The notes beneath the pieces are model-generated. The model was not told the DNA's origin. It did no database searches and was given only the letters and a program-made list of their open reading frames with translations. This document shows positions 6,150 through 21,034 of a stretch of 32,000 nt of DNA, in pieces (position 1 is the stretch's first letter; each line of letters starts with the position of its first letter). Made by a program: the position numbers and the translations under genes. The stretch lies in assembly GCF_000015585.1 (NCBI RefSeq), contig NC_008789.1:150001-182000 (forward strand), in the 5' to 3' direction. Origin of the DNA: Halorhodospira halophila SL1 (lineage in GTDB: Bacteria; Pseudomonadota; Gammaproteobacteria; Nitrococcales; Halorhodospiraceae).

Positions 6150-7310
6150 ATGATCCGAGTCACGCCGCGCGTCGCTGCCCTCGCCGGTCTCCCGCTGATC
6201 GGCGGGTCCGCCCTCGCCGGGGAGGTGATCGAGGCCAACCACGACACCGAGTACCACGGCGTGCGCATCGTGCAGGTGGCCACGGACCTGGAACACCCCT
6301 GGGGGCTGGCCTTCCTGCCCGACGGCGGCATGCTGGTCACCGAGCGCCCGGGCCGCATCAACCGGATCGAGGACGGCCAGGTCGAGCGCCTATCAGGCGG
6401 CCCCGAGAACGTCTTCGCCCGCAACCAGGGCGGGATGCTCGATATCGCCCTCCATCCGGACTTCGATGACAACCGCCAGGTCTACTTCACGTACGCGCAC
6501 GGTGATGCCGACGAGACCACCGTAGCGCTGGCGCGGGCACGCCTCGATGAAGACGCGCCCCGGCTGACCGACCTCGAGGAGCTCTTGGTGGCCGATGCCG
6601 GGGCCAGCCCCGGGCGGCACTACGGCTCACGGATCGATTTCAAACCGGACGGGACCCTGCTCATGACCGTCGGTGACCGCGGCGATGACGAACACGATCC
6701 GGACAGCCACCGCGCCCAGGACAACAGCAATCACGTCGGGACCACCCTGCGCCTGAAGGACGACGGCTCGGTGCCCGCCGACAACCCCTTCGTTGAAGAC
6801 GACGAGGTGCGCGACGAGATCTACACCTACGGCCACCGCAACGCCCAGGGTCAGTTCATTCACCCGGAGACCGGTGAGATCTGGCAGAGTGAGCACGGGC
6901 CGCGAGGTGGCGATGAACTCAACCGGGTCCAGGCCGGGCATAACTACGGGTGGCCGATCATCTCCCATGGCCGCGACTACGCCACCCAGGAACCGATCGG
7001 GACCGGGCGCCATGCCGAGGGCATGGAATCGCCCATCCGGGACTGGACCCCGGCCATCGCACCCTCGGGGCTGGATCACTACAGCGGCGAGGCGTTCCCG
7101 CGCTGGGAGGGGGATTTCCTGGCCGGCGCGCTGGTGCGCCCGGCGGTGCGCCGCGTGGTCGTCGAGGACGACACGGTGGTCCACGAAGAGGAGATCCTGC
7201 GCGACGCCGTGGGTCGGGTCCGCGCCGTCCAGGAGGGCCCCGAGGGACGGATCTATCTGCTGACCGACGAATCCGATGGCGGCATCTACCGCCTGGAACC
7301 TGCCGACTGA
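6150..7310 (+). CDS. PQQ-dependent sugar dehydrogenase (soluble aldose sugar dehydrogenase YliI/sorbosone dehydrogenase family), secreted
   Basis: There is an N-terminal signal-like sequence, MIRVTPRVAALAGLPLIGGSALAGE. Beta-propeller family motifs are present: HPWGLAFLPDG, HYGSRIDFKPDGTL and YGHRNAQG...SEHGPRGGDELNRVQAGHNYGWP. GGAG lies 9 nt upstream of the ATG. Confidence 0.88.
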   Translation: MIRVTPRVAALAGLPLIGGSALAGEVIEANHDTEYHGVRIVQVATDLEHPWGLAFLPDGGMLVTERPGRINRIEDGQVERLSGGPENVFARNQGGMLDIALHPDFDDNRQVYFTYAHGDADETTVALARARLDEDAPRLTDLEELLVADAGASPGRHYGSRIDFKPDGTLLMTVGDRGDDEHDPDSHRAQDNSNHVGTTLRLKDDGSVPADNPFVEDDEVRDEIYTYGHRNAQGQFIHPETGEIWQSEHGPRGGDELNRVQAGHNYGWPIISHGRDYATQEPIGTGRHAEGMESPIRDWTPAIAPSGLDHYSGEAFPRWEGDFLAGALVRPAVRRVVVEDDTVVHEEEILRDAVGRVRAVQEGPEGRIYLLTDESDGGIYRLEPAD

Positions 7311-7318
7311 GGGAGCCT

Positions 7319-9250
7319 GTGCCGCTACTCGAGCTACGCAACGTTCAACTCGCCCTGGGGCACCATCCGCCCCTGCTGGAAAACCTCAACCTGACCATCG
7401 ACCCCGGGGAACGGGTCTGCCTGGTCGGGCGCAACGGCGCCGGGAAGTCCACCCTGATGCGCATCCTCACCGGTGCCGTTGAGCCCGACGACGGCCAGGT
7501 CCTCTGCGACCCCGGCGTCCGCGTCGCACAACTGGCCCAGGAACTGCCCGAAGACACCAGCGGCACGGTCTATCAACATGTCGCCGCCGGCCTGGGCGCA
7601 CTCGGCGAAACCGTCGAACGCTACCACCGGGTGGCCGAGGCCGTTGCCGCCGGAGATACCGAACGCCTCGACGAGATGCAGGCCTGCCAGGACGCCCTGG
7701 ACGCCGAGGGCGGGTGGGACCTAAAGCAGCGCGTGGAGGCGGTCATCTCCCGCCTCGACCTTGACCCCGACGCCCCCATGGCGCACCTCTCCGGCGGCGT
7801 GCAGCGGCGGGTACTGCTCGGCCGCGCCCTGGTCACCGATCCGGACCTGCTCCTGCTCGACGAGCCCACCAACCACTTGGACATCGAGGCCATCACCTGG
7901 CTCGAGGGGTTCCTGCGCGACTGGCCCGGGGCGCTGCTATTCATCACCCACGACCGCACCTTCCTGCAGAGCCTCGCTACCCGCATCGTGGAGATCGATC
8001 GAGGGGCGCTGATCAGTTACCCCGGCGATTACCAGAACTATCTGCGCCGGCGCGAGGAACGCCTGCACGCCGAGGAGCAACAGCGCGCCGAATTCGACAA
8101 GCGCCTGGCCCAGGAGGAGGCGTGGATCCGCCAGGGGATCAAGGCCCGGCGCACCCGCAACCAGGGCCGGGTCCGCGAACTCCAGCGCATGCGCGCCGAA
8201 CGCGCCGAACGCCGCGAGCACCAGGGCAAGGCGCGTTTCAGCGTCCAGGAGGCCGAACGCTCCGGCAAGATCGTCGCCGAGGCCGAGGGGGTCCACTTCG
8301 CCTACGGCGACACCACCATCGTCCGCGACCTGAACACCTCCATCCTGCGCGGCGACAAGGTGGGCATCATCGGCCCCAACGGCTGCGGCAAGACCACGCT
8401 GATCCGCCTGCTCCTCGGGGCGCTGGAACCCACCCATGGGGTCATCCGGCGCGGCACCCGGCTGGAGATCGCCTATTTCGACCAGCAACGCGCGGTGCTC
8501 GACGAAGACGCCAGCGTTCAGGACAACGTCGGCGGGGGGCGCGAGCACATCGACATCAACGGCCAGTCCCGCCACGTGCTCAGTTACCTGCAGGACTTCT
8601 TGTTCCCGCCCCAACGGGCCCGTCAGCCGGTTCGCGCCCTCTCCGGCGGCGAGCGCAACCGCCTGCTACTGGCCCGGCTCTTCAGCCAGCCGGCCAACCT
8701 GCTCGTCCTCGACGAACCAACTAACGACCTCGATGCCGAGACCCTCGAGCTCCTCGAGGAGAGACTGCTGGATTTCTCCGGCACCGTACTGGTAGTCAGC
8801 CACGACCGATCGTTCCTGGATGCAGTCGTCACCCAGAGCCTGGCCTACGAAGGGGATGGGCGCTTCCGCGAATACGCCGGGGGCTATAGCGACTGGCAGA
8901 GACAGCGCCCCGGCCCAGCACCGCAGCGCCCCTCCGAGCGGGGAGGAAAGAACACCAAGGAGCGGGGCCACGCCAGTCCAACCGGAACGCCGGCGGCGAG
9001 CACCACCGGCAGCGGTCGGAAACGCCTGACGCGCAATGAGGAGCAGGAACTCGCCGCCCTGCCGGAACGCATCGAGGCCCTGGAGCGGGAGCAGGCGCAG
9101 CTGCATGAGCAGCTGGCCGATCCCGCCCTCTACCAGAGCGACGACGGCCGTCTGTCGGCCTTGCAGGAACAGCTGGCCGAACTGGAGGCGCGCCTGGAGT
9201 CGACCTACGAGCGGTGGCAGGACCTAGAGGCGCGCAGCCATGCCGGGTGA
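7319..9250 (+). CDS. uup: ABC-F family ATPase Uup (two ABC cassettes plus C-terminal coiled coil)
   Basis: GTG 7319 is in frame with track ORF 6950..9250 and follows GGGAG. Translation begins VPLLELRNVQLALG. Two Walker A sites (GRNGAGKST, GPNGCGKTT), two signature motifs (LSGGVQRR, LSGGERNR) and two Walker B sites (LLLLDEPTNHLD, LLVLDEPTNDLD) are present. A coiled-coil tail follows (EELAALPERIEALEREQAQLHEQL). The 5' part of the track ORF overlaps the dehydrogenase gene and is Arg/Gly/Pro junk. Confidence 0.93.
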   Translation: MPLLELRNVQLALGHHPPLLENLNLTIDPGERVCLVGRNGAGKSTLMRILTGAVEPDDGQVLCDPGVRVAQLAQELPEDTSGTVYQHVAAGLGALGETVERYHRVAEAVAAGDTERLDEMQACQDALDAEGGWDLKQRVEAVISRLDLDPDAPMAHLSGGVQRRVLLGRALVTDPDLLLLDEPTNHLDIEAITWLEGFLRDWPGALLFITHDRTFLQSLATRIVEIDRGALISYPGDYQNYLRRREERLHAEEQQRAEFDKRLAQEEAWIRQGIKARRTRNQGRVRELQRMRAERAERREHQGKARFSVQEAERSGKIVAEAEGVHFAYGDTTIVRDLNTSILRGDKVGIIGPNGCGKTTLIRLLLGALEPTHGVIRRGTRLEIAYFDQQRAVLDEDASVQDNVGGGREHIDINGQSRHVLSYLQDFLFPPQRARQPVRALSGGERNRLLLARLFSQPANLLVLDEPTNDLDAETLELLEERLLDFSGTVLVVSHDRSFLDAVVTQSLAYEGDGRFREYAGGYSDWQRQRPGPAPQRPSERGGKNTKERGHASPTGTPAASTTGSGRKRLTRNEEQELAALPERIEALEREQAQLHEQLADPALYQSDDGRLSALQEQLAELEARLESTYERWQDLEARSHAG

Positions 9251-9436
9251 TGACCCCGTATGCATACAGCGCACTCCGCGGTTGGCCGGGTCGCCTGGCA
9301 CCTGCGGGCGCTCCCCGGCTCCTCGGGTTCGTGACCCAATTCCGGCATCGGGACAACCCCCGCGGACGCGGTGTCTTATACTTCCAATGGCAGCTGCCAA
9401 CGCCCCGCAACGCGAACCCAGGACCCACGCCCACCG

Positions 9437-9943
9437 ATGAGCCACCCTGTCGACACCTTTCGAAGCCACTTCCGCTTCGCGCTCGTGGCCTCGGGCCGGG
9501 CGCGGGATACCATCCACGTGGTCTATACCGCCCCCCCGGCGGAGCAGGAGGTCACCGCTGCCAGCGCCGCCCTGGACCGGACCCCGCGGGACGCCCTGTT
9601 GCAGGATGTCCGGGTCGAGCCAGCCTTCCTGAAGCGTTTTGGCGAGGGCGGGGACCAGCTCGGTGATCTGAAGAGCCTGCGCAGGATCTACGGCCGCAGC
9701 TTCCCGTTGCCCTATGCCGCAGCCATGGCCGGCGCCCTCGGGCGTGCCCACAACCGGGGTTGCGCCCAGCTGCGCGGCTACCTCTCCCGCGACGAGGAGC
9801 GCATCCTGCCCCGGCTGTTTCCGCTCCAGCACGTCCGGCACCGCGAATATCGAGCGAGGACCAGCGCACTGCTTCGGGCCGCCGGCGACCGCATGCCGGT
9901 CTTCTACGAACTGATCGGCCTCGCCTGCGAACAGCTGGATTAG
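9437..9943 (+). CDS. Hypothetical protein (no family recognised)
   Basis: The frame has high GC3 and a balanced amino-acid composition (F, Y, K, D, E present). The antisense ORF 9224..9946 is Gly/Ala/Arg/Pro junk. The start is uncertain: ATG 9437 or GTG 9371, neither with a clear SD. Confidence 0.5.
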   Translation: MSHPVDTFRSHFRFALVASGRARDTIHVVYTAPPAEQEVTAASAALDRTPRDALLQDVRVEPAFLKRFGEGGDQLGDLKSLRRIYGRSFPLPYAAAMAGALGRAHNRGCAQLRGYLSRDEERILPRLFPLQHVRHREYRARTSALLRAAGDRMPVFYELIGLACEQLD

Positions 9944-11177: not shown

Positions 11178-11933
11178 TCAGTCCTTCTCGGCGCCCTGCT
11201 CCACCCAGCGGATGATCCGGTCCTTATCCCGCTGCGACAGGCTGCCACCAAGGGGCATCTGCGGCTCCGTCGTGCCGTCGATGCGCTTGACCAGCTCGCT
11301 CTCGCCAGGCTCACCGGGGACCACGATCGGCCCGTTCTTACTGCCCTCCATGAGCGCCTCGTAGGTGGTCAGGTCCAGATCCCAGATGTCGTTGCCGGGT
11401 GCGTGACAGGAGACGCAGGCGTCCCGCATGATCCGATCGATCTGCGCATAGGAGACCCGCCCGTCGGGATCGTCTTCTTCTTCCTCTTCCGCCGGGGGAC
11501 TGGCCGAGCCGTGCACCAGCTCGCCGCCGTAGTAGCCGAGAACCACCACCACCAGGAACGACGCCAGGTAACTGGCCAGCACCGCTGGCGAGCGGTAGGT
11601 CAGCTTGGCCGGGAGCAGGGCCGCGATGCCGAGGAGGACCGCTAGGATCAGACCAAACGTGACCTTGATCTTGAAGGTGGTGGTCCACCCCCCACCGTAG
11701 TAGTAGAGCCAGTCCATGAAGCCGAGGAGGATGGTCGGGAAGACCATGATGAACCCCAGCGTGACACAGTGGCGGGCCGTCACCGCATACTTCTCGTAGC
11801 GCGGCGACAGGGCCAGCAGCGCAAAGACCAGCGCAGCCACCACCAGGCCGATGGTGACGTGGACCGCAATCGGGTGCACCGGATGGGTGTATCCGAGGCC
11901 TGCCAGAAAGTTATAGAAGAAATCGACGCTCAT
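11178..11933 (-). CDS. Membrane protein: about 4 TM helices (DUF2231-like) fused to a C-terminal mono-heme cytochrome c domain (PSCyt1-like)
   Basis: Hydrophobic helices are present (IAVHVTIGLVVAALVFALLAL, VTLGFIMVFPTILLGF, VTFGLILAVLLGIAALL, LASFLVVVVLGYYGG). An acidic linker (PPAEEEEEDDPDG) follows. Then comes the heme-binding CVSCH, followed by GPIVVPGEPGESELVKRI ... MPLGG. The stop lies 4 nt from the ADH start. Confidence 0.8.
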   Translation of the reverse strand: MSVDFFYNFLAGLGYTHPVHPIAVHVTIGLVVAALVFALLALSPRYEKYAVTARHCVTLGFIMVFPTILLGFMDWLYYYGGGWTTTFKIKVTFGLILAVLLGIAALLPAKLTYRSPAVLASYLASFLVVVVLGYYGGELVHGSASPPAEEEEEDDPDGRVSYAQIDRIMRDACVSCHAPGNDIWDLDLTTYEALMEGSKNGPIVVPGEPGESELVKRIDGTTEPQMPLGGSLSQRDKDRIIRWVEQGAEKD

Positions 11934-12028
11934 GCCTCACCTTTGTTGATCGTGCGCTGCACCGCCAGGTCCCTCGCACCCCCCCTTCCATCGACAGGGC
12001 AGCGAAACCGGACCGGCTAGCATCGCGC

Positions 12029-12080
12029 ATTAAATTATCAGTCAGCAATCTTTTTGACCATCATCAATGGCGTTTTTCGT
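12029..12080. promoter_or_regulatory. AT-rich block in the divergent intergenic region (presumed promoter zone for 11933(-) and the Hsp70-module operon)
   Basis: attaaattatcagtcagcaatctttttgaccatcatcaatggcgtttttcg is conspicuously AT-rich for this window. It contains TTGACC (12054-12059), but I could not pair it with a convincing -10 element. Confidence 0.3.
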
Positions 12081-12133
12081 CACCCCAAACGATCCTGTTC
12101 GCCCCGGCCTTCCATCGTCCAGACCGTAGGAGG

Positions 12134-14398
12134 ATGAGCACAGCTGTCCGCACGCGTATCATGCCCATCATGGGGCGCTCGTCACCGAGGGCCTCATTCC
12201 GGAGTCGCAAGCAAGGGACCGATGTGGCCGATCCAATGACCCCGCGGGAACAGCAGCAACCGCCCCTGCACGCCGCCCACCTGACCGTGGAACCGTACGC
12301 GCGCCAGGCGCTGGCGGATGGGCGCTACCGCGAGGCCATCAAGCACTTCCGCACCCTCGCCCAGACCGAGCCCGAGGTGGTCTGGGCCGAAGGGCTGGCC
12401 GACGCATACCGCGGTCGGGCACTGGAGCTCACCGCCAAGGGGATGCCGCGCGAGGCGCTGGCCATCTGGGAGAATCGCGAATGGCGTTGCCCGGGTGCCC
12501 TGCCGGAGCCCGAGCAGATCAGCCTGCTCCTGGAGCTGGGCGAGATCGATACGGCCCAGTCGGCCTACGCGCGCCTGCGCGAGGCCGGTGCTTGCGAGGC
12601 ACTGAGCCGGGCCCGCCCTCACCTGGCCGCCTACGCTCTCGTCCACCCCGACTCACTCCGTACCCTAGACCCCGAAGACCCGGTGCGAGCCGATGGCGAA
12701 ACCGCGCAGGCCGCCCTGGCGGCTTACTGCGCCGGCGAGGATGAGACCGCCGCCGGATACCTGCGGGCGATCCCGTATCGATCGCCTTACCGCGACTGGG
12801 TGACCGTCCTCAAGGCCCTGATGAGCGACCCCGGGCAAGAGCGGGCCGTGGAGCGGCTGCTTGCGGGCATGGACGAGAACTCCCCCTTCGCGCCTCTGGC
12901 CGACGCGGTGCGCCTGGCCCGACTGGCCGAGCCCGAACTGCTGCCGGCGCTAACCACGGTGAGCGAGCCGGTGCGCCGGTTCGCCACCGCCCTGCGCGGC
13001 TGGTCAGCCCAACGCTACCGGCTCTGGCGCGAGCTGTTCAGCCCCGAGGCACCGGAACAGGCCACCGACCCGGTGACGGTCCTGGCCGACTGGCGCGAAG
13101 ACCTCGGCGAAGACTGGTCTCGGCAACAGCGTCTGCGCTACGCCCTGCACCACCCGGCGGTGCACGCCCCCGAGGACGCCGACGAGTTCGAGCGTGCCCT
13201 GCTCCAGGCCTGGCGGACCGAGGCCTTTCACGCCGATGACCCGGGTGCAATCCTCGCCGCCTGGCAGGGGGTGATCGAGGCGCTGCGCGGCGCTGCCGAG
13301 CCGACCCCCGGCGATCGGGCCGCGTTGCGGATCGCCGCCATCCAGCGCCACCTGGTCAGCGATCTGCATCTGCTCGACACCCCGCTGGCTGCCGAGGCGG
13401 AGAACGCCCTGGCCGAGAGCGTGGCGCTGGATCCCGACCACCTCCCCGGTCACCGCCTGCTCATCCAGCGCCACCGGGAGTGCGGCCGCCCCATCCAGGC
13501 CCGGCGGGCGATGGATCAGGCCCTGGCCCGCTGGCCCGAGGATCTTGGTCTGCTACAGGAGGCCCTGGAGATCGCCCTGGATGGCGAGGATTTCGAAGGC
13601 GCCGCCGTCTATGCCGGGCGCCTCCTCGAGCGTGACCCGATCAACCGCCGCGCGCGGGCGGTGCTGCACGAGGCGCTCCTAACCCGAGCTCGCTCGGCCT
13701 GCACCGAGGACGACCCGGAAGCCGCTCGCGCTGCCCTCGATCAGGCCGACGCCTGGGCGGAGTCGGCCCCGGCCCGAGCCCAGCTGGAGCGTCTGCGGGC
13801 CGTGGTCGATGCCAGCCACGGTAACGGCGCCGAGGCACGCCGACTGCGTGATCGCGCCACCGCCGAAGGCGACACACTGGGCAGCGCCCTGGCTTTGGCG
13901 GTGGAAGCCGAGCGGGCCGGTCAACCGGCCGAAACGGTACTGACACGAAGCGGCCTGACCCCGCCGAAGCGGATCGAACGCCCCGCGTTGCTCGAACTCG
14001 CCCAGCGCATGCACGAGGTCGCCGCAACCACGGACGATGTCCCGGAGCGTGCCTTGGCCCCCTTTGCCCCGACCCTGCGTCGGGCCGTTCGCATCAAGAC
14101 ACTCAGCCTGGACGACTACGCCGCCGTCTGCGAGGCCCTGCGCGCGGTCGGCCAGGACGAACTGCGCGACCGCTTCGCACGCGAGGCGTTGCGCCACCGG
14201 CTGGAGGATCCGCTGTTCACCGTACACAGCCTGGAAGCCCGGTATCGGCAGGACGGCGGTGGCCGCCCCACCAGCCGGGAACTCGACCAGCTCCGCCGGG
14301 CCTTCCGGCAGGCACGCCGCGACGACGACAAGCGCACCGCACACCGGGCCGGGGAACTGATCAAGCGACTGGTCCCCCACCCGGAGAGCGGTGCCTGA
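12134..14398 (+). CDS. Large all-helical TPR-like repeat protein (first gene of the Hsp70 module)
   Basis: 754-aa ORF with high GC3, rich in Ala/Leu/Arg/Glu. TPR-like segments are visible (YREAIKHFRTLAQTEPE, EALAIWENRE, AAVYAGRLLERDPINRRARAVLHEAL). No catalytic motif was seen. The start is ambiguous: AGGAGG abuts ATG 12134 with zero spacing. Alternatives are GTG about 12224 (after AGGGA plus 5 nt) or ATG 12236. Confidence 0.7.
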   Translation: MSTAVRTRIMPIMGRSSPRASFRSRKQGTDVADPMTPREQQQPPLHAAHLTVEPYARQALADGRYREAIKHFRTLAQTEPEVVWAEGLADAYRGRALELTAKGMPREALAIWENREWRCPGALPEPEQISLLLELGEIDTAQSAYARLREAGACEALSRARPHLAAYALVHPDSLRTLDPEDPVRADGETAQAALAAYCAGEDETAAGYLRAIPYRSPYRDWVTVLKALMSDPGQERAVERLLAGMDENSPFAPLADAVRLARLAEPELLPALTTVSEPVRRFATALRGWSAQRYRLWRELFSPEAPEQATDPVTVLADWREDLGEDWSRQQRLRYALHHPAVHAPEDADEFERALLQAWRTEAFHADDPGAILAAWQGVIEALRGAAEPTPGDRAALRIAAIQRHLVSDLHLLDTPLAAEAENALAESVALDPDHLPGHRLLIQRHRECGRPIQARRAMDQALARWPEDLGLLQEALEIALDGEDFEGAAVYAGRLLERDPINRRARAVLHEALLTRARSACTEDDPEAARAALDQADAWAESAPARAQLERLRAVVDASHGNGAEARRLRDRATAEGDTLGSALALAVEAERAGQPAETVLTRSGLTPPKRIERPALLELAQRMHEVAATTDDVPERALAPFAPTLRRAVRIKTLSLDDYAAVCEALRAVGQDELRDRFAREALRHRLEDPLFTVHSLEARYRQDGGGRPTSRELDQLRRAFRQARRDDDKRTAHRAGELIKRLVPHPESGA

Positions 14399-14430
14399 AC
14401 GACGCAGCCCCCTTGACCCGAACACCGTCT

Positions 14431-14772
14431 ATGGATAAGACCCTGAACCCGATGCCAAGCCCCGAAATCGAACACGCCGATCCCTACCTCTGCCTGGGCG
14501 TCGCACGCGACGCGGAGGACGAAACCATCCATGGGGCTTACCTGGCAGCGGTCAGGGGCTGCCCGCCGGAGCGGGACCCCCGGCGCTTCGAGGCACTGCG
14601 CCAGGCGTATCAGGCCATCCGCACCGAGCGAATGCGCCTGGCTCACGACCTGTTCGATACCCTGCCAGCCACCGCACTGGATATCCTGGACCGGGCGGCG
14701 CCGGCCCACCCCCCAGGGCGCCCGGATGAGGAGAGCTTTCGCGCAGTGCTCGGGCAGAGGGGCGAGGGCTGA
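14431..14772 (+). CDS. Minimal J-like domain protein (HPD motif replaced by PPE)
   Basis: DPYLCLGVARDAEDETIHGAYLAAVRGCPPERDPRRFEALRQAYQAI aligns by eye to J-domain helices I-III of DnaJ (DYYEILGV...AYKRLAMKYHPDRN...FKEIKEAYEVL). There is no G/F region, zinc finger or C-terminal domains. Start options are TTG 14413, ATG 14431 and ATG 14452. The stop overlaps the next start (TGATG at 14770-14774). Confidence 0.75.
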   Translation: MDKTLNPMPSPEIEHADPYLCLGVARDAEDETIHGAYLAAVRGCPPERDPRRFEALRQAYQAIRTERMRLAHDLFDTLPATALDILDRAAPAHPPGRPDEESFRAVLGQRGEG

Positions 14773-15428
14773 TGGACAGCAACGAGCGCGAGGCGCTGGT
14801 CGCGCGCTTTCGCGACTACCTGGAACGCAGCGATGGGGCGCCGCAGGAGGAGCAGGCACCGCAGACCCCGGACCTCTACACCCTGCTCAACGAGATGGCG
14901 GCACTCAAGAACGACGTCCGCCTCGAGTCGCGCCAGTACAAATCGGCCCTCGACCAGCTGAGCGAGGACTGTGAGATGCTGCGCCAGCAGAATGGACAAC
15001 TGCAGGAACACCTGGAGCGGGAACGCCGCCGAGCGGATCTGGCCCACGACGACGCCGAACAGGCCGTGCTCCAGGAACTGCTCGATCTGCGCGACCGCCT
15101 CGCCGCCGGACACCGACAGGTCGCCACCCACCGGCCCGGCTGGCTGGCTCGGCTCGGCGGTACCCGCCGGTATCTGTCCAGCGTGGCTCAGGGCATGGAG
15201 ATGAACCTGCGCCACCTGGATGAGATCCTGGCGCGCCGCGGTGTGCAGGTCCAGGAGACCGTCCAGAAGCCCTTCGACCCGCAGACCATGCACGCCGTGG
15301 ATACAACCACCGAGCCCGGAGCGGATCACGGCGTCGTGGTGCGCGAGGTCCGTCAGGGCTTCCTGCGCGGCGGCCGGGTCCTGCGCACCGCCGAGGTCAT
15401 CGTCAACAAGAAGGACAGCAAGTCGTGA
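14772..15428 (+). CDS. GrpE-like nucleotide exchange factor
   Basis: 218 aa. It has a long N-terminal coiled coil (LLNEMAALKNDVRLESRQYKSALDQL...). The C-terminal GrpE beta-domain signature is PFDPQTMHAVDTTTEPGADHGVVVREVRQGFLRGGRVLRTAEVIV. The stop overlaps the Hsp70 start (GTGA at 15425-15428). Confidence 0.85.
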   Translation: MDSNEREALVARFRDYLERSDGAPQEEQAPQTPDLYTLLNEMAALKNDVRLESRQYKSALDQLSEDCEMLRQQNGQLQEHLERERRRADLAHDDAEQAVLQELLDLRDRLAAGHRQVATHRPGWLARLGGTRRYLSSVAQGMEMNLRHLDEILARRGVQVQETVQKPFDPQTMHAVDTTTEPGADHGVVVREVRQGFLRGGRVLRTAEVIVNKKDSKS

Positions 15429-17158
15429 ACGACATCATCATCGGCATCGATCTGGGCACCACCAACTCCGAGGTGGCCGTCGTTCGCAACGGCCAAGTGC
15501 AGCTCATCGAGGTCGAGGACGCCTACCTGATGCCCTCCGCCGTCGGGCTCGACGAGGAGGGTGGCCTGCTCGTCGGTTACGCGGCCCGCAACCAGCTGGC
15601 GCTGCACCCGGAGCGAACCGTGCGCTCGATCAAGCGGCGCATGGGAGAAGACATCAAGGTACCGCTGGGGGATCGCAGCTACACGCCCCAGGAGATCTCC
15701 GCGGTGATCCTCGCCCGTCTCAAGCAGGCAGCCGAGGTGCAACTCGGCGAGCCGGTGCGCAAGGCGGTGATCACCGTGCCGGCCTACTTCTCCGACGCCC
15801 AGCGCCAGGCCACCCGCGACGCCGGCACACTGGCCGGGCTGGAGGTCGTGCGCATCATCAACGAACCCACGGCCGCCGCGCTCGCCTACGAGAGTGACCA
15901 AGCCGAGCGCAGGCACATCCTCGTCTACGACCTCGGCGGCGGCACCTTCGACGTCTCCGTCGTGCGTATGGAGCAGGATGTGGTCGAGGTCCTCGCCAGC
16001 CACGGCAACAACCACCTGGGCGGCGACGATTTTGACGCCCTGATCGTCGATCAGCTGCGCGCCCACGTAAAGGACGAACACGGGATCGATCCGGCGGACG
16101 ACCCACGCGCCATGGCGCGACTCCGCCACACCGCCGAGGCGGCCAAGATGGAGCTCTCCAGCGCCCCGATCGCCCGGATCGAGGAGGCCTACCTGCTGGA
16201 AGGCCGCAACGGCCCTGTCAATCTGTCGGTGGACCTGACCCGCGCGGATTACGAGGCGATGATTGAGCCCCTCCTCGACGAGACCCTGGAGGCTGTGCGC
16301 ATCGCCCTTGAGGACGCCGAGCTGGCCGTCACCGACCTCGACGAGATCGTGCTGGTCGGCGGCACAACCCGCACCCCCCGGATCCAGCAGCGACTCGAGG
16401 AGCTGCTCGGGCTCCAGCCACGCAGCGAGATCGACCCCGATCTGTGCGTAGCGATGGGCGCCGCCATCCAGGGGGGCGTGATCGCCGGCGAGAAGGTGGC
16501 GAGCATGCTCGTCGACGTCACCCCGTATACCTTCGGCACCAGTGCCATCGCCGAGCTCAACGGGGAGCGCTACCCGTACTGCTTCATCCCGGTCATCCGC
16601 AAGAACACCCCTATCCCGGTGACCCGCAGTGAGGCGTTCTTCACCTCCTACGATGGCCAGGAGGCGATCGACGTCCGCGTCTTCCAGGGGGAGGACCCGG
16701 ATGCATTGAACAACACCCAGATCGGCTCATTCCGCATCGAGGGGCTGAGCGATGTACCCGCCGGCAACGTGATCATCACCACCTTCTCCCTGGACGTGAA
16801 CGGCATCCTGCACGTCTCGTCGGTGGAGAAGCTCACCGGCAAGCGCAAGGAGATCACCATCGACAGCGCCACGGCGCGCTTCGAACGGGAGGAGATGGGC
16901 GCAGCCCGTGAGCGGGTCCAGGATCTGATCGATAGCGACGCCGCCACCCAGCAGACCATGACCGATTCGGCCGGTTACCGGAGCACGGAGTTAATCGAGC
17001 GGGCCGAACGACTCCTCGATCACGCCACCCCCGAGGATCGCGAGGACCTCGTCGACGCCATCGAGCAGCTGCGCGACGCGTTGCAGCAGGAGGATCAGGC
17101 CGCCCTCGAACAGGCCCGCGAGGCCCTGTCCGATCTGGTGTTCTACCTGGAGTCCTGA
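15425..17158 (+). CDS. Hsp70 family ATPase, DnaK paralogue with a short lid (577 aa)
   Basis: GTG start has AAGGA about 10 nt upstream. Actin-fold motifs are all present: IGIDLGTTNS, VITVPAYFSDAQRQATRDAG..IINEPTAAALAY, LVYDLGGGTFDVSVV and IVLVGGTTRTPRIQ. The interdomain linker and SBD-beta are LVDVTPYTFG ... NGILHVSS ... KEITI. The helical lid is short and there is no acidic C-terminal tail. Confidence 0.93.
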   Translation: MNDIIIGIDLGTTNSEVAVVRNGQVQLIEVEDAYLMPSAVGLDEEGGLLVGYAARNQLALHPERTVRSIKRRMGEDIKVPLGDRSYTPQEISAVILARLKQAAEVQLGEPVRKAVITVPAYFSDAQRQATRDAGTLAGLEVVRIINEPTAAALAYESDQAERRHILVYDLGGGTFDVSVVRMEQDVVEVLASHGNNHLGGDDFDALIVDQLRAHVKDEHGIDPADDPRAMARLRHTAEAAKMELSSAPIARIEEAYLLEGRNGPVNLSVDLTRADYEAMIEPLLDETLEAVRIALEDAELAVTDLDEIVLVGGTTRTPRIQQRLEELLGLQPRSEIDPDLCVAMGAAIQGGVIAGEKVASMLVDVTPYTFGTSAIAELNGERYPYCFIPVIRKNTPIPVTRSEAFFTSYDGQEAIDVRVFQGEDPDALNNTQIGSFRIEGLSDVPAGNVIITTFSLDVNGILHVSSVEKLTGKRKEITIDSATARFEREEMGAARERVQDLIDSDAATQQTMTDSAGYRSTELIERAERLLDHATPEDREDLVDAIEQLRDALQQEDQAALEQAREALSDLVFYLES

Positions 17159-17415
17159 TGGATCGCTGCCCCAACTGTCGCGCCCGGGCCGACGATCAGG
17201 CGCAGCACTGCCGGCGCTGCGGCATGGAGCTGGCACTGCTGCGGTGCACCGATCAGGCCGCCGATCGGAGGCTCCAGGAAGGGGTCCGGCAGATGGCCGC
17301 CGGCGACCGGGGCGCAGCCGAGGAGGCGCTGCAACAGGTCCTGACCCTGCGCGCCGACCCCCTGGCCCGACACCTCATCGGTTTCCTGAGGGCACCCGCC
17401 GGATCGTCCGACTGA
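17158..17415 (+). CDS. Small zinc-ribbon protein (CxxC-N10-CxxC) with helical tail
   Basis: MDRCPNCRARADDQAQHCRRCG is followed by a helical, TPR-like segment. The ATG overlaps the Hsp70 stop (TGATG at 17156-17160), with GGAG 6 nt upstream. High GC3. Confidence 0.65.
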   Translation: MDRCPNCRARADDQAQHCRRCGMELALLRCTDQAADRRLQEGVRQMAAGDRGAAEEALQQVLTLRADPLARHLIGFLRAPAGSSD

Positions 17416-17452
17416 CCCACCGTGCACCGCCCTGCCCCGGCCCGACGCTGAT

Positions 17453-20400
17453 TCACTCCCGGTCGTCGAGCTGCTCGAGCATGTCGTCCACCGCCGCCTC
17501 GAGCTGCCGATCGCGGCCCGCCACTTCATCCTCCGGGCGCTGGCGCACCCGGATATCCGGCTCGGCACCGTGGTGCTCCATGTCGGTGCCGTCCGGCAGA
17601 TACCAGCCGCGGAAGGGACGGCGCACGGTGGCACCGTCGATCAGGGCGTGCCGACCGGTGGAGATCACGCCACCGTAGGTCTGTTCGCCCACCAGGGTGC
17701 CCCGTTCGAGGGTATTGAAGGCGTGCGCCAGGATCTCGGCGTTGGAGTAGCTCTTCTCGTTGGCCACCATGTTGATGGGCAGCGTATAGCGCGGGGCATC
17801 CAGGCGGTCCTGCGGGTAGTGACCAGTGCGCGAGGGGTCGGCGCCCGCGGGGATGGTGTAGGCGTGCTCGGCCGCCATGATCGAGGTGAGGATCCGATCG
17901 GTGGTATGCCCGCCGCCGTTGTTGCGGACGTCGATGATCAGCCCCTCCTTGCCCTCCGCCGCCGCGTAGAGACTGCCCTGGAAGGCCTCCAGGGAGGCCT
18001 GGTTCATCGCCTGGATATGGATGTACCCGAGCCGGCCATCGGAGCGCTCGTCCACCAGCCGGCGCCGCTCCTCCCGGAACGCGTCGTAGCGCAGCTCGGC
18101 CATACCCCGATAATCGACGGGCGTTACCAGGGTGTGCAAAAGCTGCCTGCCGTCCCCCTCCGGTTCGGGCCGACGGAAGGCGATGAGCAGCTCATCACCG
18201 ACCCGGCCCCGCAGGCGCTGGAGCAGGGTCTCATCGCGGTCGATTCCGCGGCCGTCGATGGCCACGATGGTATCGCCGCTCTGCAGGGGCATAGGCCCGT
18301 GGGCCGCCGGCCCGTTGGGAACCACCGACTCGACCCGGTATCCCGGGCGCCCGTCTGCCAGTTCGACGCGCTCATGTCGAATCCCCAGCCGCCCGGAGGG
18401 CTCGCGCAGGGCCGACCCGGGGCCGGGATTGCTCACCCCGGTGTGTGAGGCGGCCAGTTCGCCCATGAGGCGATTGGCGATGTCGCTGAATTCGCTGGCC
18501 GTCCGCGCCCGGCGGATCAAGGCCTCGTAATCGGATACCAGCGCCTCCCAGTCCAGGCCCTTGAGGTCCGGCCGATAGAACCCCTCTTCGATGATGCGCG
18601 CCGCCTCGCGGAACTTCTGCACGCCCTGGGCCTTTCGGTCGATGCGGATCCGGTCGCTGATGTCAGGGCGCCGATGCTCGCCACCGCCGAGCCGCACCAC
18701 CCCGGCCCGCCCTCCGGCGACGTAGACCACCCGATCGCCGCGCAGGGTCAGATGCTGGATATCGGCCACCGGGCCCAGGCGGCGCCGCTCGCTGCCGTCC
18801 CAGTTCATCACCATCAGCCCCTCGCCGGCGCTATTGAAGACGTAGCGGTCGCCGGCCGGGGTCATCCGGCTCGCGTACTCGTTGCCGGCCGCGCTGCTGA
18901 CTCGCTCCACGCGCCGCCAAGCACCCTCGAGCTCCAGCTCCGGCGGCTCTTCCTGGGTCACCGTCTCCGTCCGAGTCACATCCGTGGCACCCGGGGTGAG
19001 CACCGGCAGCGGCTCACGCCGCTCCGCCGCTTCGCGCCCCTGGCGATAGTAGCGGTCAAGCTCCAGGCGGCTGTAACGCGCCAGCTCCGGATCCAGGTAG
19101 ACCCGGTAGAGATCGTAGCTATCCCCGCTGCGGTTGGAGATGAAGGTCAGCACCCGACCGTCGGCTGACCAGTGCGGATTGAGATCGTTGCGTGGGTGAC
19201 GGGTGATGTTGACCGGCTCCGCCGACCCGTCCGCAGGGACGATGAAGACGTTGGCGCTGAAATCCAGGTCGTTCTGCGTATAGGCGATGTGGCGGCCGTC
19301 GGGCGACCAGCGCCAGTCGATTGTGGCGTCCCACCCCTCGACCAGGGTGCGCTCGCCGCCCCCGTCGAGGTCTTGGACCACCAGATCGCCGCGCCCGCGG
19401 CGGAATGCGATCCGGGTACCGTCCGGGGACGGCCTGGCATCGCGCTCGTGCTCCTCGCTCTGCACCAGAGGACGCAGAGTGAACTGCAGGGCGTCGTGCC
19501 AGCGATCCGGATCCGCGGCCGGTGCCACCGGATCGGCTTCCTCCGGCACGGGCTCCGGGTCCGGGGCCGGCTGCGGATCGGGCTCCGGCGGCGTATCCGG
19601 TTCCGTCAGGGCGGGCTCGAGACCCGGGTCGCCGGGGTCGGGATCCGACGGCGGCTCGATGGGGTCGGTGGGGGCGAAGGGGTCGTCCGGGTCGGCGGCT
19701 GCGCCATCCCCGCCGCTTGACTCCTGCCCCTCTGACGCGTCCGCCCCGGTCTCGGGTCGCGCCGGGCGCGGTGCACCCCCCGTTTCCCCGGAGGCCACCC
19801 AGCCGCGGCGTACCTCCTCGCGGGTCAGGGCCACCCCGGCGGTGTAGATCGATTCAGTGCCGTCGGCATCCCGGGTGAAGTACAACCGCAGACCATCCGG
19901 CGACCAGCGCAGGTCCCGATGACGGGCGTGGGTATCCGGGGTCACGGGGCGAGTCGGACTGTGCTCATCCATATGTCGCACGTAGACCCGGCCGTAGGCG
20001 ATGTACGCCATCACTTCGCCGTCGGGGCTCAGCGCGGCCTCACTGACCTGGCGGTCCACCGAGCGCAGCTCGTAGCGGTCGTGCCCCGGGTCGCCGGCCC
20101 GCAACGCCACCGGCTCCGGCTCGGCATCGAGCCTATCCAGATCGAGAAGGTAGAGCCGATCCCAGACCTGCAACACCGCCCGACCCGCTTCGGGCGCCAC
20201 ATCGAACGCCTGTACATCCCGCTCATCGAAGTGGGTCAGGCGCTCCACGCCACCGGACGCCCCCTCCACCCTCGCGCGGAAGAGGTTCACGGTGTTGTCC
20301 TCACGGTCCGAGAGGAAGATCAGGGTCCGCTCATCCAACCACTGTGCCTGGCCGTCGTCCCCGGCACGACGCTGGGTCAACGGGGAGAACGCCTCCTCGT

Positions 20401-21034
20401 CGCGGTCGTAGAGCCACACATCGCGGGCATCGGGCCCGTGGTAGTGGCGGCGACTCCAACCGTGATAGGCCCCGCCACGGGTGAAGGCTACGTATCGCCC
20501 ATCGGGGGAGGTGCTGGGCTCGGAGCCAAAGGCGTCATGCAGGCGCTGCGGCTCGCCGCCCCCCGGCGCGACGCCGTAGGGGCGCTGGTCCCGGTAGACA
20601 TCCGCCTCAAGCTGCGCCGAGAAGGTCACCAGCGGCTCGCCATCGCGGCCCACTCCGAAACCGGGGTGGCGCAGGAAACGATCGCCGTAAGTGACCTGCC
20701 TGAGTCCCGTCCCGTCCGGCCGCATGCGCCAGAGGTTGAGGTAACCGTCCCGCAAGGAGGAGAACACCAGCGTATCCCCGTCGCCGGACCAGGCGGAGTG
20801 GAGATCGTCCAGACGATGGCCGGTCAGCCGGGTCGCTGTGCCACCCTCGGCGGGGACCCGCCAGAGGTCGCCCCCCCAGCTGAAGACCAGCTTCTCTCCA
20901 TCCGGGCTGATGGACGGGAAACGGGGCAGCTCGACGGCCGTTTCACCCTCGTCAGCCGCCGCCACCGTCAAGGGGCCGACCAACCCGAGAAGGCCTGCGA
21001 GCAACACGAGCAGGAACGGGATGACGCTACGCAT
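17453..21034 (-). CDS. Tricorn protease homologue (PD40 beta-propellers, PDZ, S41 peptidase domain), secreted
   Basis: 1193 aa. It has a signal peptide (MRSVIPFLLVLLAGLLGLVGPLTVAAA). Repeated PD40 motifs are present (SPDGEKLVFS, SPDGRYVAFT, SPDGEVMAYI, SPDGLRLYFT, SPDGTRIAFR, SPDGRHIAYT, SADGRVLTFIS). A PDZ segment follows (VVPNGPAAHGPMPLQSGDTIVAIDG). The S41 core is GLIIDVRNNGGGHTTD ... NEKSYSNAEILAHAF. Confidence 0.9.
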   Translation of the reverse strand: MRSVIPFLLVLLAGLLGLVGPLTVAAADEGETAVELPRFPSISPDGEKLVFSWGGDLWRVPAEGGTATRLTGHRLDDLHSAWSGDGDTLVFSSLRDGYLNLWRMRPDGTGLRQVTYGDRFLRHPGFGVGRDGEPLVTFSAQLEADVYRDQRPYGVAPGGGEPQRLHDAFGSEPSTSPDGRYVAFTRGGAYHGWSRRHYHGPDARDVWLYDRDEEAFSPLTQRRAGDDGQAQWLDERTLIFLSDREDNTVNLFRARVEGASGGVERLTHFDERDVQAFDVAPEAGRAVLQVWDRLYLLDLDRLDAEPEPVALRAGDPGHDRYELRSVDRQVSEAALSPDGEVMAYIAYGRVYVRHMDEHSPTRPVTPDTHARHRDLRWSPDGLRLYFTRDADGTESIYTAGVALTREEVRRGWVASGETGGAPRPARPETGADASEGQESSGGDGAAADPDDPFAPTDPIEPPSDPDPGDPGLEPALTEPDTPPEPDPQPAPDPEPVPEEADPVAPAADPDRWHDALQFTLRPLVQSEEHERDARPSPDGTRIAFRRGRGDLVVQDLDGGGERTLVEGWDATIDWRWSPDGRHIAYTQNDLDFSANVFIVPADGSAEPVNITRHPRNDLNPHWSADGRVLTFISNRSGDSYDLYRVYLDPELARYSRLELDRYYRQGREAAERREPLPVLTPGATDVTRTETVTQEEPPELELEGAWRRVERVSSAAGNEYASRMTPAGDRYVFNSAGEGLMVMNWDGSERRRLGPVADIQHLTLRGDRVVYVAGGRAGVVRLGGGEHRRPDISDRIRIDRKAQGVQKFREAARIIEEGFYRPDLKGLDWEALVSDYEALIRRARTASEFSDIANRLMGELAASHTGVSNPGPGSALREPSGRLGIRHERVELADGRPGYRVESVVPNGPAAHGPMPLQSGDTIVAIDGRGIDRDETLLQRLRGRVGDELLIAFRRPEPEGDGRQLLHTLVTPVDYRGMAELRYDAFREERRRLVDERSDGRLGYIHIQAMNQASLEAFQGSLYAAAEGKEGLIIDVRNNGGGHTTDRILTSIMAAEHAYTIPAGADPSRTGHYPQDRLDAPRYTLPINMVANEKSYSNAEILAHAFNTLERGTLVGEQTYGGVISTGRHALIDGATVRRPFRGWYLPDGTDMEHHGAEPDIRVRQRPEDEVAGRDRQLEAAVDDMLEQLDDRE
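19505..19792 (-). other. Acidic, proline-rich low-complexity insertion inside the tricorn-like protease (about residues 415-510)
   Basis: The translation is SGETGGAPRPARPETGADASEGQESSGGDGAAADPDDPFAPTDPIEPPSDPDPGDPGLEPALTEPDTPPEPDPQPAPDPEPVPEEADPVAPAADPD. The underlying DNA has quasi-repetitive ccggatcc/gggtccggg-type units. Confidence 0.6.

Follow-up and report, generated by a model that had tools for sequence, protein, structure and literature searches.

Introduction

To our knowledge, specialized bacterial Hsp70 systems with known jobs are few and consist essentially of HscA/HscB and HscC/DjlC. According to recent reviews, the roles of most DnaK-derived paralogues are unknown. In this study, we analyzed a five-gene operon of Halorhodospira halophila SL1 that is located at positions 12134-17415 of a 32,000-nucleotide stretch of DNA (NC_008789.1, positions 150,001 to 182,000 of the forward strand), which as a whole is called the window in the following. 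The operon encodes a large scaffold protein resembling tetratricopeptide repeat (TPR) proteins, a J-like protein, a GrpE-type nucleotide exchange factor, an Hsp70 protein, and a small zinc-ribbon protein. An earlier note on this DNA, made from the letters alone, had not recognized the arrangement as a characterized system, and our literature searches likewise found no published description of this module.

The HscC-DjlC/DjlB system of Escherichia coli (ybeT-ybeU-djlC / hscC locus) resembles the module in possessing a specialized, shortened Hsp70 that lacks the insert in the nucleotide-binding domain (NBD), in having its own J-protein and a Sel1/TPR-like repeat protein encoded alongside, and in not being a general chaperone. 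In E. coli K-12 (L028; NC_000913.3 679000-687000), HscC is found together with DjlC, the DUF1266 protein YbeU, and the Sel1-repeat protein YbeT. However, HscC and the module Hsp70 share 36% identity and fall into different clades, and the hscC locus contains neither a zinc-ribbon gene nor a large solenoid scaffold. DjlC has a normal HPD motif and HscC works without GrpE. HscA/HscB is also a dedicated pair of an Hsp70 and a small J-protein serving one client pathway. HscA differs from the module Hsp70 in having the NBD insert, and the latter scores 430.4 bits against a cut-off of 708.55 on the HscA equivalog model TIGR01991. HscB has the HPD motif, HscA/HscB lacks a dedicated GrpE, unlike the module, and there are no isc genes in the window.

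The mitochondrial PAM system (mtHsp70, Mge1, Pam18/Pam16, Zim17/Hep1) appears to follow the same logic as the module, namely an Hsp70 that is held at a fixed site and assisted by a GrpE-type factor, with the HPD-less J-like protein Pam16 serving to regulate or tether it and a small zinc-finger protein as a further partner. This likeness is an analogy only, and we claim homology solely for the Hsp70, GrpE and J folds. The module is without a Pam18-like HPD-bearing partner, its zinc ribbon does not match the DNL-type finger, and its platform is a TPR solenoid, whereas that of PAM is a membrane translocase.

The nearest published neighborhood theme is that of the GAP1-N2 GTPase systems, which contain HSP70, GrpE, and an FNIII protein fused to DnaJ or TPR (Kaur et al., eLife 2020, PMC7159879) and thus, like the module, combine a non-housekeeping Hsp70 and GrpE with J and/or TPR elements. 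Unlike the module, these systems are centered on GTPase and FNIII proteins and occur mainly in Actinobacteria and Firmicutes; no GTPase or FNIII protein is encoded among the window neighbors or the 72 flanking proteins of 18 related loci. A more distant parallel is CnuD of the CoCoNuT Type III systems, which are of the McrBC type (PMC11090510). This Hsp70-like unit with HEAT repeats shares with the module the combination of Hsp70-like NBD and substrate-binding domain (SBD) with alpha-helical repeats. The ATPase motifs of CnuD are degenerate, and it is linked to McrB/McrC and HEPN nucleases, whereas the module has intact ATPase residues, J and GrpE partners, and no McrBC genes. Identity with either the GAP1-N2 GTPase systems or CoCoNuT was rejected because their defining neighbors are absent. 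The module does not have the defining features of any of the known families with which we compared it.

Results

Organization of the operon

Five open reading frames (ORFs) on the + strand, coding in this order for TPR scaffold, J-like protein, GrpE, Hsp70, and zinc ribbon, make up the operon. The features of the region are the following (window coordinates):

11934..12223, + strand: upstream leader/intergenic region, divergent from a membrane cytochrome c gene (11178-11933, - strand)
12134..14398, + strand: TPR-like all-alpha solenoid scaffold, ORF of 754 aa, or 724 aa from GTG 12224
14413..14772, + strand: J-like protein, 119 aa from TTG, or 113 aa from ATG 14431
14563..14571, + strand: P-P-E codons at the position of the catalytic H-P-D of J-domains, in the hhalign register
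14772..15428, + strand: GrpE-type nucleotide exchange factor, 218 aa, Pfam GrpE
15425..17158, + strand: Hsp70 of a distinct clade, 577 aa, Pfam HSP70
17132..17155, + strand: Hsp70 C-terminus DLVFYLES, family consensus [IVL][FY]YL[EQ][STA]-COOH
17158..17415, + strand: protein with zinc ribbon and TPR-like hairpin, 85 aa, Cys codons within 17167-17220

The last three junctions (GGCTGATGGAC, GTCGTGAACG, TCCTGATGGAT) are, base by base, exact TGATG, GTGA, and TGATG overlaps, as the earlier note had stated for its five packed same-strand genes. The gap between the TPR and J genes is 14 or 32 nt, according to the start codon picked. NCBI places the start of the scaffold gene at GTG 12224 (P0121, annotated as 'hypothetical protein') and that of the J-like gene at ATG 14431 (P0192). 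Thus, the note was right in giving a gap of at most 32 nt and a size of 113-119 aa for the J-like protein.

An AGGAGG sequence abuts ATG 12134 with zero spacer. No sigma-70-like promoter, intrinsic terminator, or Rfam element was detected around the operon, and no sigma-32-like spacing was seen in its leader when judged by eye. As nothing of this kind was found, a regulatory RNA, a heat-shock-type promoter, or a terminator flanking the operon was rejected.

Conservation and distribution of the five-gene module

A profile of the J-like protein was used to scan one genome per species, covering 185,579 species, and returned 19 loci, 18 of which were genuine. The same-strand order TPR-J-GrpE-Hsp70-zinc ribbon was found in 18/18 genuine loci, two of which end at contig edges and show the first genes only. 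The proteins of these loci have 810-926 aa for the TPR protein, 96-104 aa for the J-like protein, 213-232 aa for GrpE, 574-590 aa for Hsp70, and 81-116 aa for the zinc-ribbon protein. Four further look-ups anchored on Hsp70 proteins with 66-69% identity to the window Hsp70 revealed genes for J, GrpE, Hsp70, and a small ORF every time, with a TPR protein of 311-821 aa encoded upstream, and the five-gene order was also kept in both look-ups anchored on the scaffold, one of which concerned a distant member with 46% GC (L029). Tight gene packing was observed in most module-bearing genomes. With its own profile, the scaffold matched 601 cluster representatives (50% identity) at E<=1e-30, and the J-like profile matched 685 proteins at E<=1e-3.

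The hosts belong to Chromatiaceae, Ectothiorhodospira, Thiogranum, Halomonas, and a Pseudomonadales metagenome-assembled genome (MAG) on the side of the Gammaproteobacteria, and include Variovorax paradoxus ISL-79 and Burkholderiaceae MAGs among the Betaproteobacteria. The spread is patchy, since only some species of Halomonas, Variovorax, and Chromatiaceae carry the module, and the 18 species representatives among 185,579 are a lower bound on its occurrence. The flanks are unlike in every genome: the 72 proteins flanking the 18 related loci contain no Pfam family more than three times and include neither a GTPase nor an effector. The scaffold had no match on plasmids or phages. The five-gene module is thus real, conserved, and self-contained, with an arrangement far beyond chance. 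This answers one of the two questions on which the earlier note had made its interpretation depend: the TPR, J-like, GrpE-like, and zinc-ribbon neighbors do co-occur with this Hsp70 across taxa, and a fortuitous linkage is ruled against by a synteny that extends across Gamma- and Betaproteobacteria while the flanks vary.

Public annotation mislabels the module, with the J-like protein called DnaJ or CbpA, the scaffold called 'hypothetical', and the zinc-ribbon gene often not called. In public gene calls, the latter gene was found to be either mis-started, so that the ribbon is lost, or uncalled (L003:9658-10047, L005:9658-10062, L029:12291-12554), so that neighborhood surveys relying on annotation would overlook this gene. 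In Thiobaca trueperi, a gene for a 2172-aa RCC1/WD40-like repeat protein follows the zinc-ribbon gene on the same strand after 22 nt (L001:10127-16645). This protein may represent either a sixth component specific to this lineage or a client; no such neighbor was seen in the other loci.

The Hsp70 protein forms a clade of its own

The window Hsp70 matched the Pfam HSP70 family with an E-value of 9e-154 and scored below both DnaK equivalog cut-offs (NF001413, 560.9 versus 648 bits; TIGR02350, 553.3 versus 822.55 bits) as well as below that for HscA given above. An NCBI protein that is 100% identical to it carries the plain label 'Hsp70 family protein'. Its identity to the E. coli proteins is 41% for DnaK and 38% for HscA, in addition to the value for HscC already mentioned, so that its distance to the three is roughly the same. 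The module Hsp70s form a tight monophyletic clade in which the window copy is 59-70% identical to the other members. This clade is separate from HscC in a small neighbor-joining tree which, with its few reference sequences, leaves room for a deep relationship to HscC. An insert of about 24 residues in the NBD is present in E. coli DnaK, the DnaK of L025, and HscA, and absent from HscC, from the window Hsp70, and from all module homologs examined. The top-scoring solved structure for the window Hsp70 was the insert-less DnaK of Geobacillus. In the SBD-beta, a conserved insertion of eight residues containing NGExYPY is found; the lid is short and there is no acidic tail. The description given in the earlier note, a 577-aa Hsp70 with a short lid and without C-terminal tail, is borne out, and by these scores, the separate clade, and the missing insert the protein is not an ortholog of DnaK, HscA, or HscC.

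Functionally important residues are conserved among 119 sequences: D8, K70, E171, D194, T199, P143, R151, R167, N170, K414, F426, and Q433 in 119/119 and T173 in 118/119. P143 and R151 belong to the allosteric switch, R167, N170, and T173 to the J-contact surface, and F426 and Q433 to the substrate pocket. The interdomain linker reads V-L-V-D, with its hydrophobic core kept. Judged by these residues, the Hsp70 retains a complete catalytic center, allosteric switch, linker, substrate pocket, and J-docking surface.

The C-terminal consensus of the Hsp70 is present in essentially all of the 120 closest homologs and in the distant members. As an idea only, this conserved end could be imagined to dock to the TPR scaffold in the manner of an EEVD peptide; just as well, it may form the buried terminus of the last lid helix.

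The J-like protein lacks the HPD motif

The J-like protein matched the Pfam DnaJ family with an E-value of 4.7e-5, which is under the gathering score. In an hhalign comparison with the J-domain of canonical DnaJ a probability of 97% was obtained, profile matches in the PDB were to J-domains without exception (E ~1e-5), and an AlphaFold2 model, whose core had a pLDDT of 93-97, gave J-domains throughout as top Foldseek matches, the best being a 'pseudo DnaJ'. By profiles and model, this is a genuine J-fold. In the hhalign alignment, the sequence 'cPPeRDp' is set over 'yHPDlNp', so that the catalytic His is replaced by Pro. All database homologs inspected (120/120) are without HPD, 94 having PPE and 26 PPD, and PPE or PPD was found in 20/20 locus copies inspected and also in the distant 46% GC member L029. 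The loop following PP[ED] is about six residues shorter than in the canonical J-domain. The J-fold is followed by a conserved C-terminal extension with the pattern LFDTxPP..D[IV]LDRAAP..RP..ALLRG. The homologs have about 97 aa.

Within the 97-119 aa of these proteins, the J-fold is the sole domain detected, and the absence of a G/F region, a CXXCXGXG zinc finger, and client-binding domains is in accordance with the earlier description. The same note had assigned to the module a J-type partner of its own. This holds for the J-fold and for the constant co-occurrence of the gene; as a functional J-protein the partner does not look convincing, given the replacement of HPD by PPE or PPD in all homologs. 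The histidine of the HPD motif of J-domains is required for stimulating ATP hydrolysis by Hsp70. Therefore, canonical ATPase stimulation cannot be assumed, and by analogy the J-like protein looks like a docking or regulatory subunit comparable to mitochondrial Pam16 rather than a classical trigger.

The GrpE-like and zinc-ribbon proteins

The GrpE-like protein covers positions 4-165 of the 165 positions of the Pfam GrpE profile (PF01025; E 7.7e-29, 100.9 bits), which confirms that the module has a nucleotide exchange factor of its own. It is below every NCBIfam GrpE equivalog cut-off, with the best score being 47 versus 137 bits. Because of the full GrpE domain combined with scores below these cut-offs, the protein is a divergent paralogue. 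When aligned with canonical GrpE, it shows a clade-specific insert, RPGWLAR..GG.

For the 85-aa protein, matches to Zn_ribbon_3/DZR and HemY_N were obtained, all under the gathering scores. Its zinc ribbon of the type CxxC...CxxC has residues R3, C4, P5, C7, C18, R20, C21, and G22 invariant in 17 aligned homologs, so that an invariant RCPxC...CxRCG ribbon is followed by a single TPR-like helical hairpin; the TPR-motif matches of this helical half are weak and non-significant. Beyond these generic zinc-ribbon and weak single-TPR matches, there was no sign of homology to Hep1/Zim17 or to the DnaJ zinc finger. The proposal of the earlier note that the zinc-finger and client-binding functions fused in DnaJ are here split into separate genes found no support in homology, as the ribbon matches generic Zn_ribbon/DZR families and not CXXCXGXG. 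A subgroup of the zinc-ribbon proteins (L007, L008, L005) shares a conserved C-terminal ...PP[AED]DWYLT. The window protein does not have this ending, which could serve as a further short motif for docking.

The TPR scaffold and its C-terminal tail

Pfam matches of the scaffold to TPR_19 and TPR_14 are weak and under the gathering scores. Its AlphaFold2 model (pLDDT 92.2) is an all-alpha solenoid of about 41 helices, for which Foldseek found only large TPR scaffold subunits (Ctr9, IFT-A, Naa15, APC/C, Ski3) with low TM-scores. The scaffold is the fastest-evolving component of the module, with 30-40% identity between genera versus 59-70% for Hsp70, and therefore fits the expectation for a specificity subunit.

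Outside Halorhodospira, the scaffolds have 80-190 extra C-terminal residues, which form an unalignable tail rich in Pro, Lys, and Arg and then an acidic patch (examples are L007:5214-7994, L008:5424-7994, and L013:5260-8019; P0128-P0173). Most tails finish with QLDLF or variants of it (QLDLFS, QLKLF, QLELF, QGDLFE, QKDLFDD, others), located 0-3 residues from the C-terminus. The pattern Q..[LMIF]F was present within the last nine residues of 51/80 non-redundant scaffolds, compared to a mean of 0.12 and a maximum of 2 for shuffled tails (1000 shuffles). In a set of 128 diverse full-length representatives it was found in 66, with partial variants in 9 more, and the Gln at position 1 is kept. The codons of the tail motif vary synonymously and are not purine-rich, so that it is the peptide that is under selection rather than a ribosome-binding site of the overlapping J gene. 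For the same reason, an origin of the motif as a by-product of such a ribosome-binding site was rejected.

The published consensus for binding to the beta sliding clamp is QL(S/D)LF, with QLDLF being the strongest known binding peptide, and published clamp-binding motifs are situated in disordered tails with an acidic flank or a free carboxylate. The scaffold tail motif matches this consensus literally and is thus a putative clamp-binding motif. In this respect most module scaffolds resemble Pol II and Pol IV as well as Pol III alpha, which have a C-terminal clamp motif of the QL[SD]LF type in a disordered tail. Clamp-binding proteins include no known chaperone or TPR partner, and clamp binding is predicted from the motif for the wider family, the window scaffold being without it. 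The five module proteins of the window contain no compensating clamp-type motif; their one loose match falls within a structured helix.

A second class of scaffolds has a strongly polybasic C-terminus, e.g., ...KRRKHTKRKKKKKR, and no clamp-type motif (P0316, P0396, P0404, P0413, P0441, P0444, and others; L029:7001-9439). These C-termini could bind nucleic acid or membrane. Among close relatives, the scaffold gene encodes 311, 645, or 856 aa (L003:6125-7060, L005:5123-7060, L008:5424-7994), and in L016:1485-3967 it is split into two ORFs, which suggests that some copies are truncated at the N-terminus, frameshifted, or misassembled. One scaffold representative of 719 aa (P0440) ends in DLGGGTFDVSVVRL, a segment of an Hsp70 NBD. 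Either two genes are fused here, or the gene call is frameshifted or chimeric.

Genes surrounding the operon in the window

The neighbors of the operon, located on both strands, are unrelated to it and code for a sorbosone dehydrogenase, an ABC-F ATPase, an iron alcohol dehydrogenase, cytochromes, a PHP-domain protein, and an ABC exporter. The gene for a DUF2231/cytochrome c membrane protein is divergent from the operon, and that for a 1193-aa tricorn-like S41 protease (17453-21034, - strand) is convergent with it. The end of the zinc-ribbon gene is separated from this protease gene by 37 nt (17415-17453) without a recognizable terminator between them. The longest ORF of the ABC-F ATPase (6950-9250) starts with about 130 low-complexity Arg/Gly/Pro residues and overlaps the sorbosone dehydrogenase gene before it (6150-7310); its actual start probably lies farther downstream. 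Between the ABC-F and alcohol dehydrogenase genes there is a 190-aa ORF (9371-9943) with a GC3 of 0.82 and without Pfam match.

Discussion

A proposed dedicated Hsp70 machine mounted on a TPR scaffold

Our preferred reading, which we hold with moderate confidence, is that the region encodes a dedicated, scaffold-bound Hsp70 remodeling machine of five proteins made together and not serving general folding. The overlapping stop and start codons would lead to coupled and roughly stoichiometric synthesis, and the five proteins would assemble into one machine. The TPR solenoid may be the platform and choose a specific client or site. The J-like protein would dock on the R167/N170/T173 surface of Hsp70 and, by its C-terminal extension, anchor Hsp70 to the platform, acting as a tether or regulator in a Pam16-like manner rather than as a classical ATPase trigger. 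In addition, it may shield the module Hsp70 from the housekeeping DnaJ. The module GrpE would reset the ATPase cycle, and the zinc-ribbon protein might either cap or extend the solenoid or escort Hsp70. In such a machine, ATP would thus drive the remodeling or disassembly of a dedicated client rather than general folding. Since a basic tail with a clamp-type motif is present in most relatives, the clients in most lineages are probably associated with DNA or the replisome. The scaffold of H. halophila has no tail and would therefore find its target in another way.

Several observations weigh against this picture. With the HPD histidine replaced, ATP hydrolysis might not be stimulated by the J-like protein, which could even be an inhibitor. 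No gene elsewhere could be linked to the module. The window scaffold ends with ...KRLVPHPESGA straight after the last helix, so that both tail and motif are absent, as in all Halorhodospira, and 53 of the 128 scaffold representatives (~40%) are motif-less; about half of these have a polybasic tail, and the others end differently or are tail-less. Finally, an mSystems dataset, which counted DnaK by RPS-BLAST to PRK00290 at E<0.01, gives only one DnaK for strain SL1 and does not identify the protein counted.

Alternative explanations

A sharper version of the scaffold-bound machine, possible in our view but with considerable doubt, would have the QLDLF-type motif bind DnaN and the adjacent basic stretch bind DNA. 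The Hsp70 would then be brought to sites of replication or repair, where it might dismantle or recycle complexes bound to the clamp or to DNA; the same tentative grade applies to this step. The literal consensus match, placed terminally in a disordered tail that has an acidic flank or a free carboxylate, argues for this version, as do its frequency in both scaffold sets against about 0.1 expected by chance, the synonymous codon variation that points to selection on the peptide, and the polybasic tails of about half of the motif-less scaffolds, which are compatible with nucleic-acid binding. DnaK, DnaJ, and GrpE are known to remodel replication complexes in lambda and P1 replication. However, the tail is missing in Halorhodospira including the window copy, a motif of five residues could serve other partners such as the TPR groove or the Hsp70 of the module itself, no replication or repair gene recurs among the 72 flanking proteins, and in the literature found no chaperone is listed among the known clamp partners. 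An anti-phage or other conflict system, a possibility also raised in the earlier note, is unlikely. In such a system, the fast-evolving TPR protein would sense an invader protein, and the Hsp70 cycle would serve as a switch or would itself inactivate the invader protein. The patchy distribution, varied chromosomal contexts, and fast-evolving TPR component of the module would fit, Hsp70-like units do occur in predicted conflict systems, and a few loci lie beside a TacAT toxin-antitoxin system, Fic, transposases, Cas3, or a Type IIG restriction-modification enzyme. On the other hand, the module has no recognizable effector (nuclease, protease, TIR, pore), only ~3/72 flanking proteins are defense-related while the flanks are mostly housekeeping, the scaffold is unmatched on plasmids and phages, and the strong conservation of Hsp70 (59-70%) is unusual for conflict systems. 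With PADLOC 2.0, four module proteins had no match and the Hsp70 had one match with an E-value of 0.006, which is not meaningful; a known defense system was rejected on account of these negative results and of nearly negative ones for the flanks. The defense suggestion thus received little support.

The explanation that we regard as least probable, and indeed as very improbable, is that the module represents the housekeeping DnaK/DnaJ/GrpE set in divergent form. The single, unnamed PRK00290-type DnaK published for SL1 could be taken in its favor, as could the fact that our searches, which covered the literature on Halorhodospira DnaK, retrieved no second dnaK of this genome, and so could the Hsp70 itself, which by its residues appears catalytically and allosterically intact. 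Against it stand Hsp70 scores below both DnaK equivalog cut-offs with an NCBI name restricted to 'Hsp70 family protein', the absence of the NBD insert of E. coli DnaK, and a J partner without HPD, G/F region, zinc finger, or client-binding domain. Moreover, the module is rare (at least 18/185,579 species) and occurs in genera where DnaK is otherwise universal. Entries for DnaK, DnaJ, and GrpE of H. halophila SL1 are presumably present in Swiss-Prot. It has been reported that dnaK is present in 98.9% of bacterial genomes, and a review states that derived DnaK paralogues were never found without a bona fide DnaK.

Significance of the module

Going beyond the dedicated remodeling machine, one may tentatively, and with clear reservations, regard the module as an undescribed class of Hsp70 machine that is permanently mounted on a TPR protein via an HPD-less J adaptor, has a private GrpE, and in most lineages is leashed to clamp or DNA and associated with the replisome. 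Its ATPase cycle would then proceed without a classical J-domain trigger, and the H. halophila copy would be a tail-less derivative. With 601 scaffold clusters, the module is a clean and conserved case amenable to experiment. It poses the questions of how a fully allosteric Hsp70 works with an obligate J partner from which the HPD histidine is universally missing and of what a TPR platform of 700-900 residues recruits. If true, a clamp-linked chaperone would give the clamp hub a new class of partner and connect proteostasis with replication in a new way.

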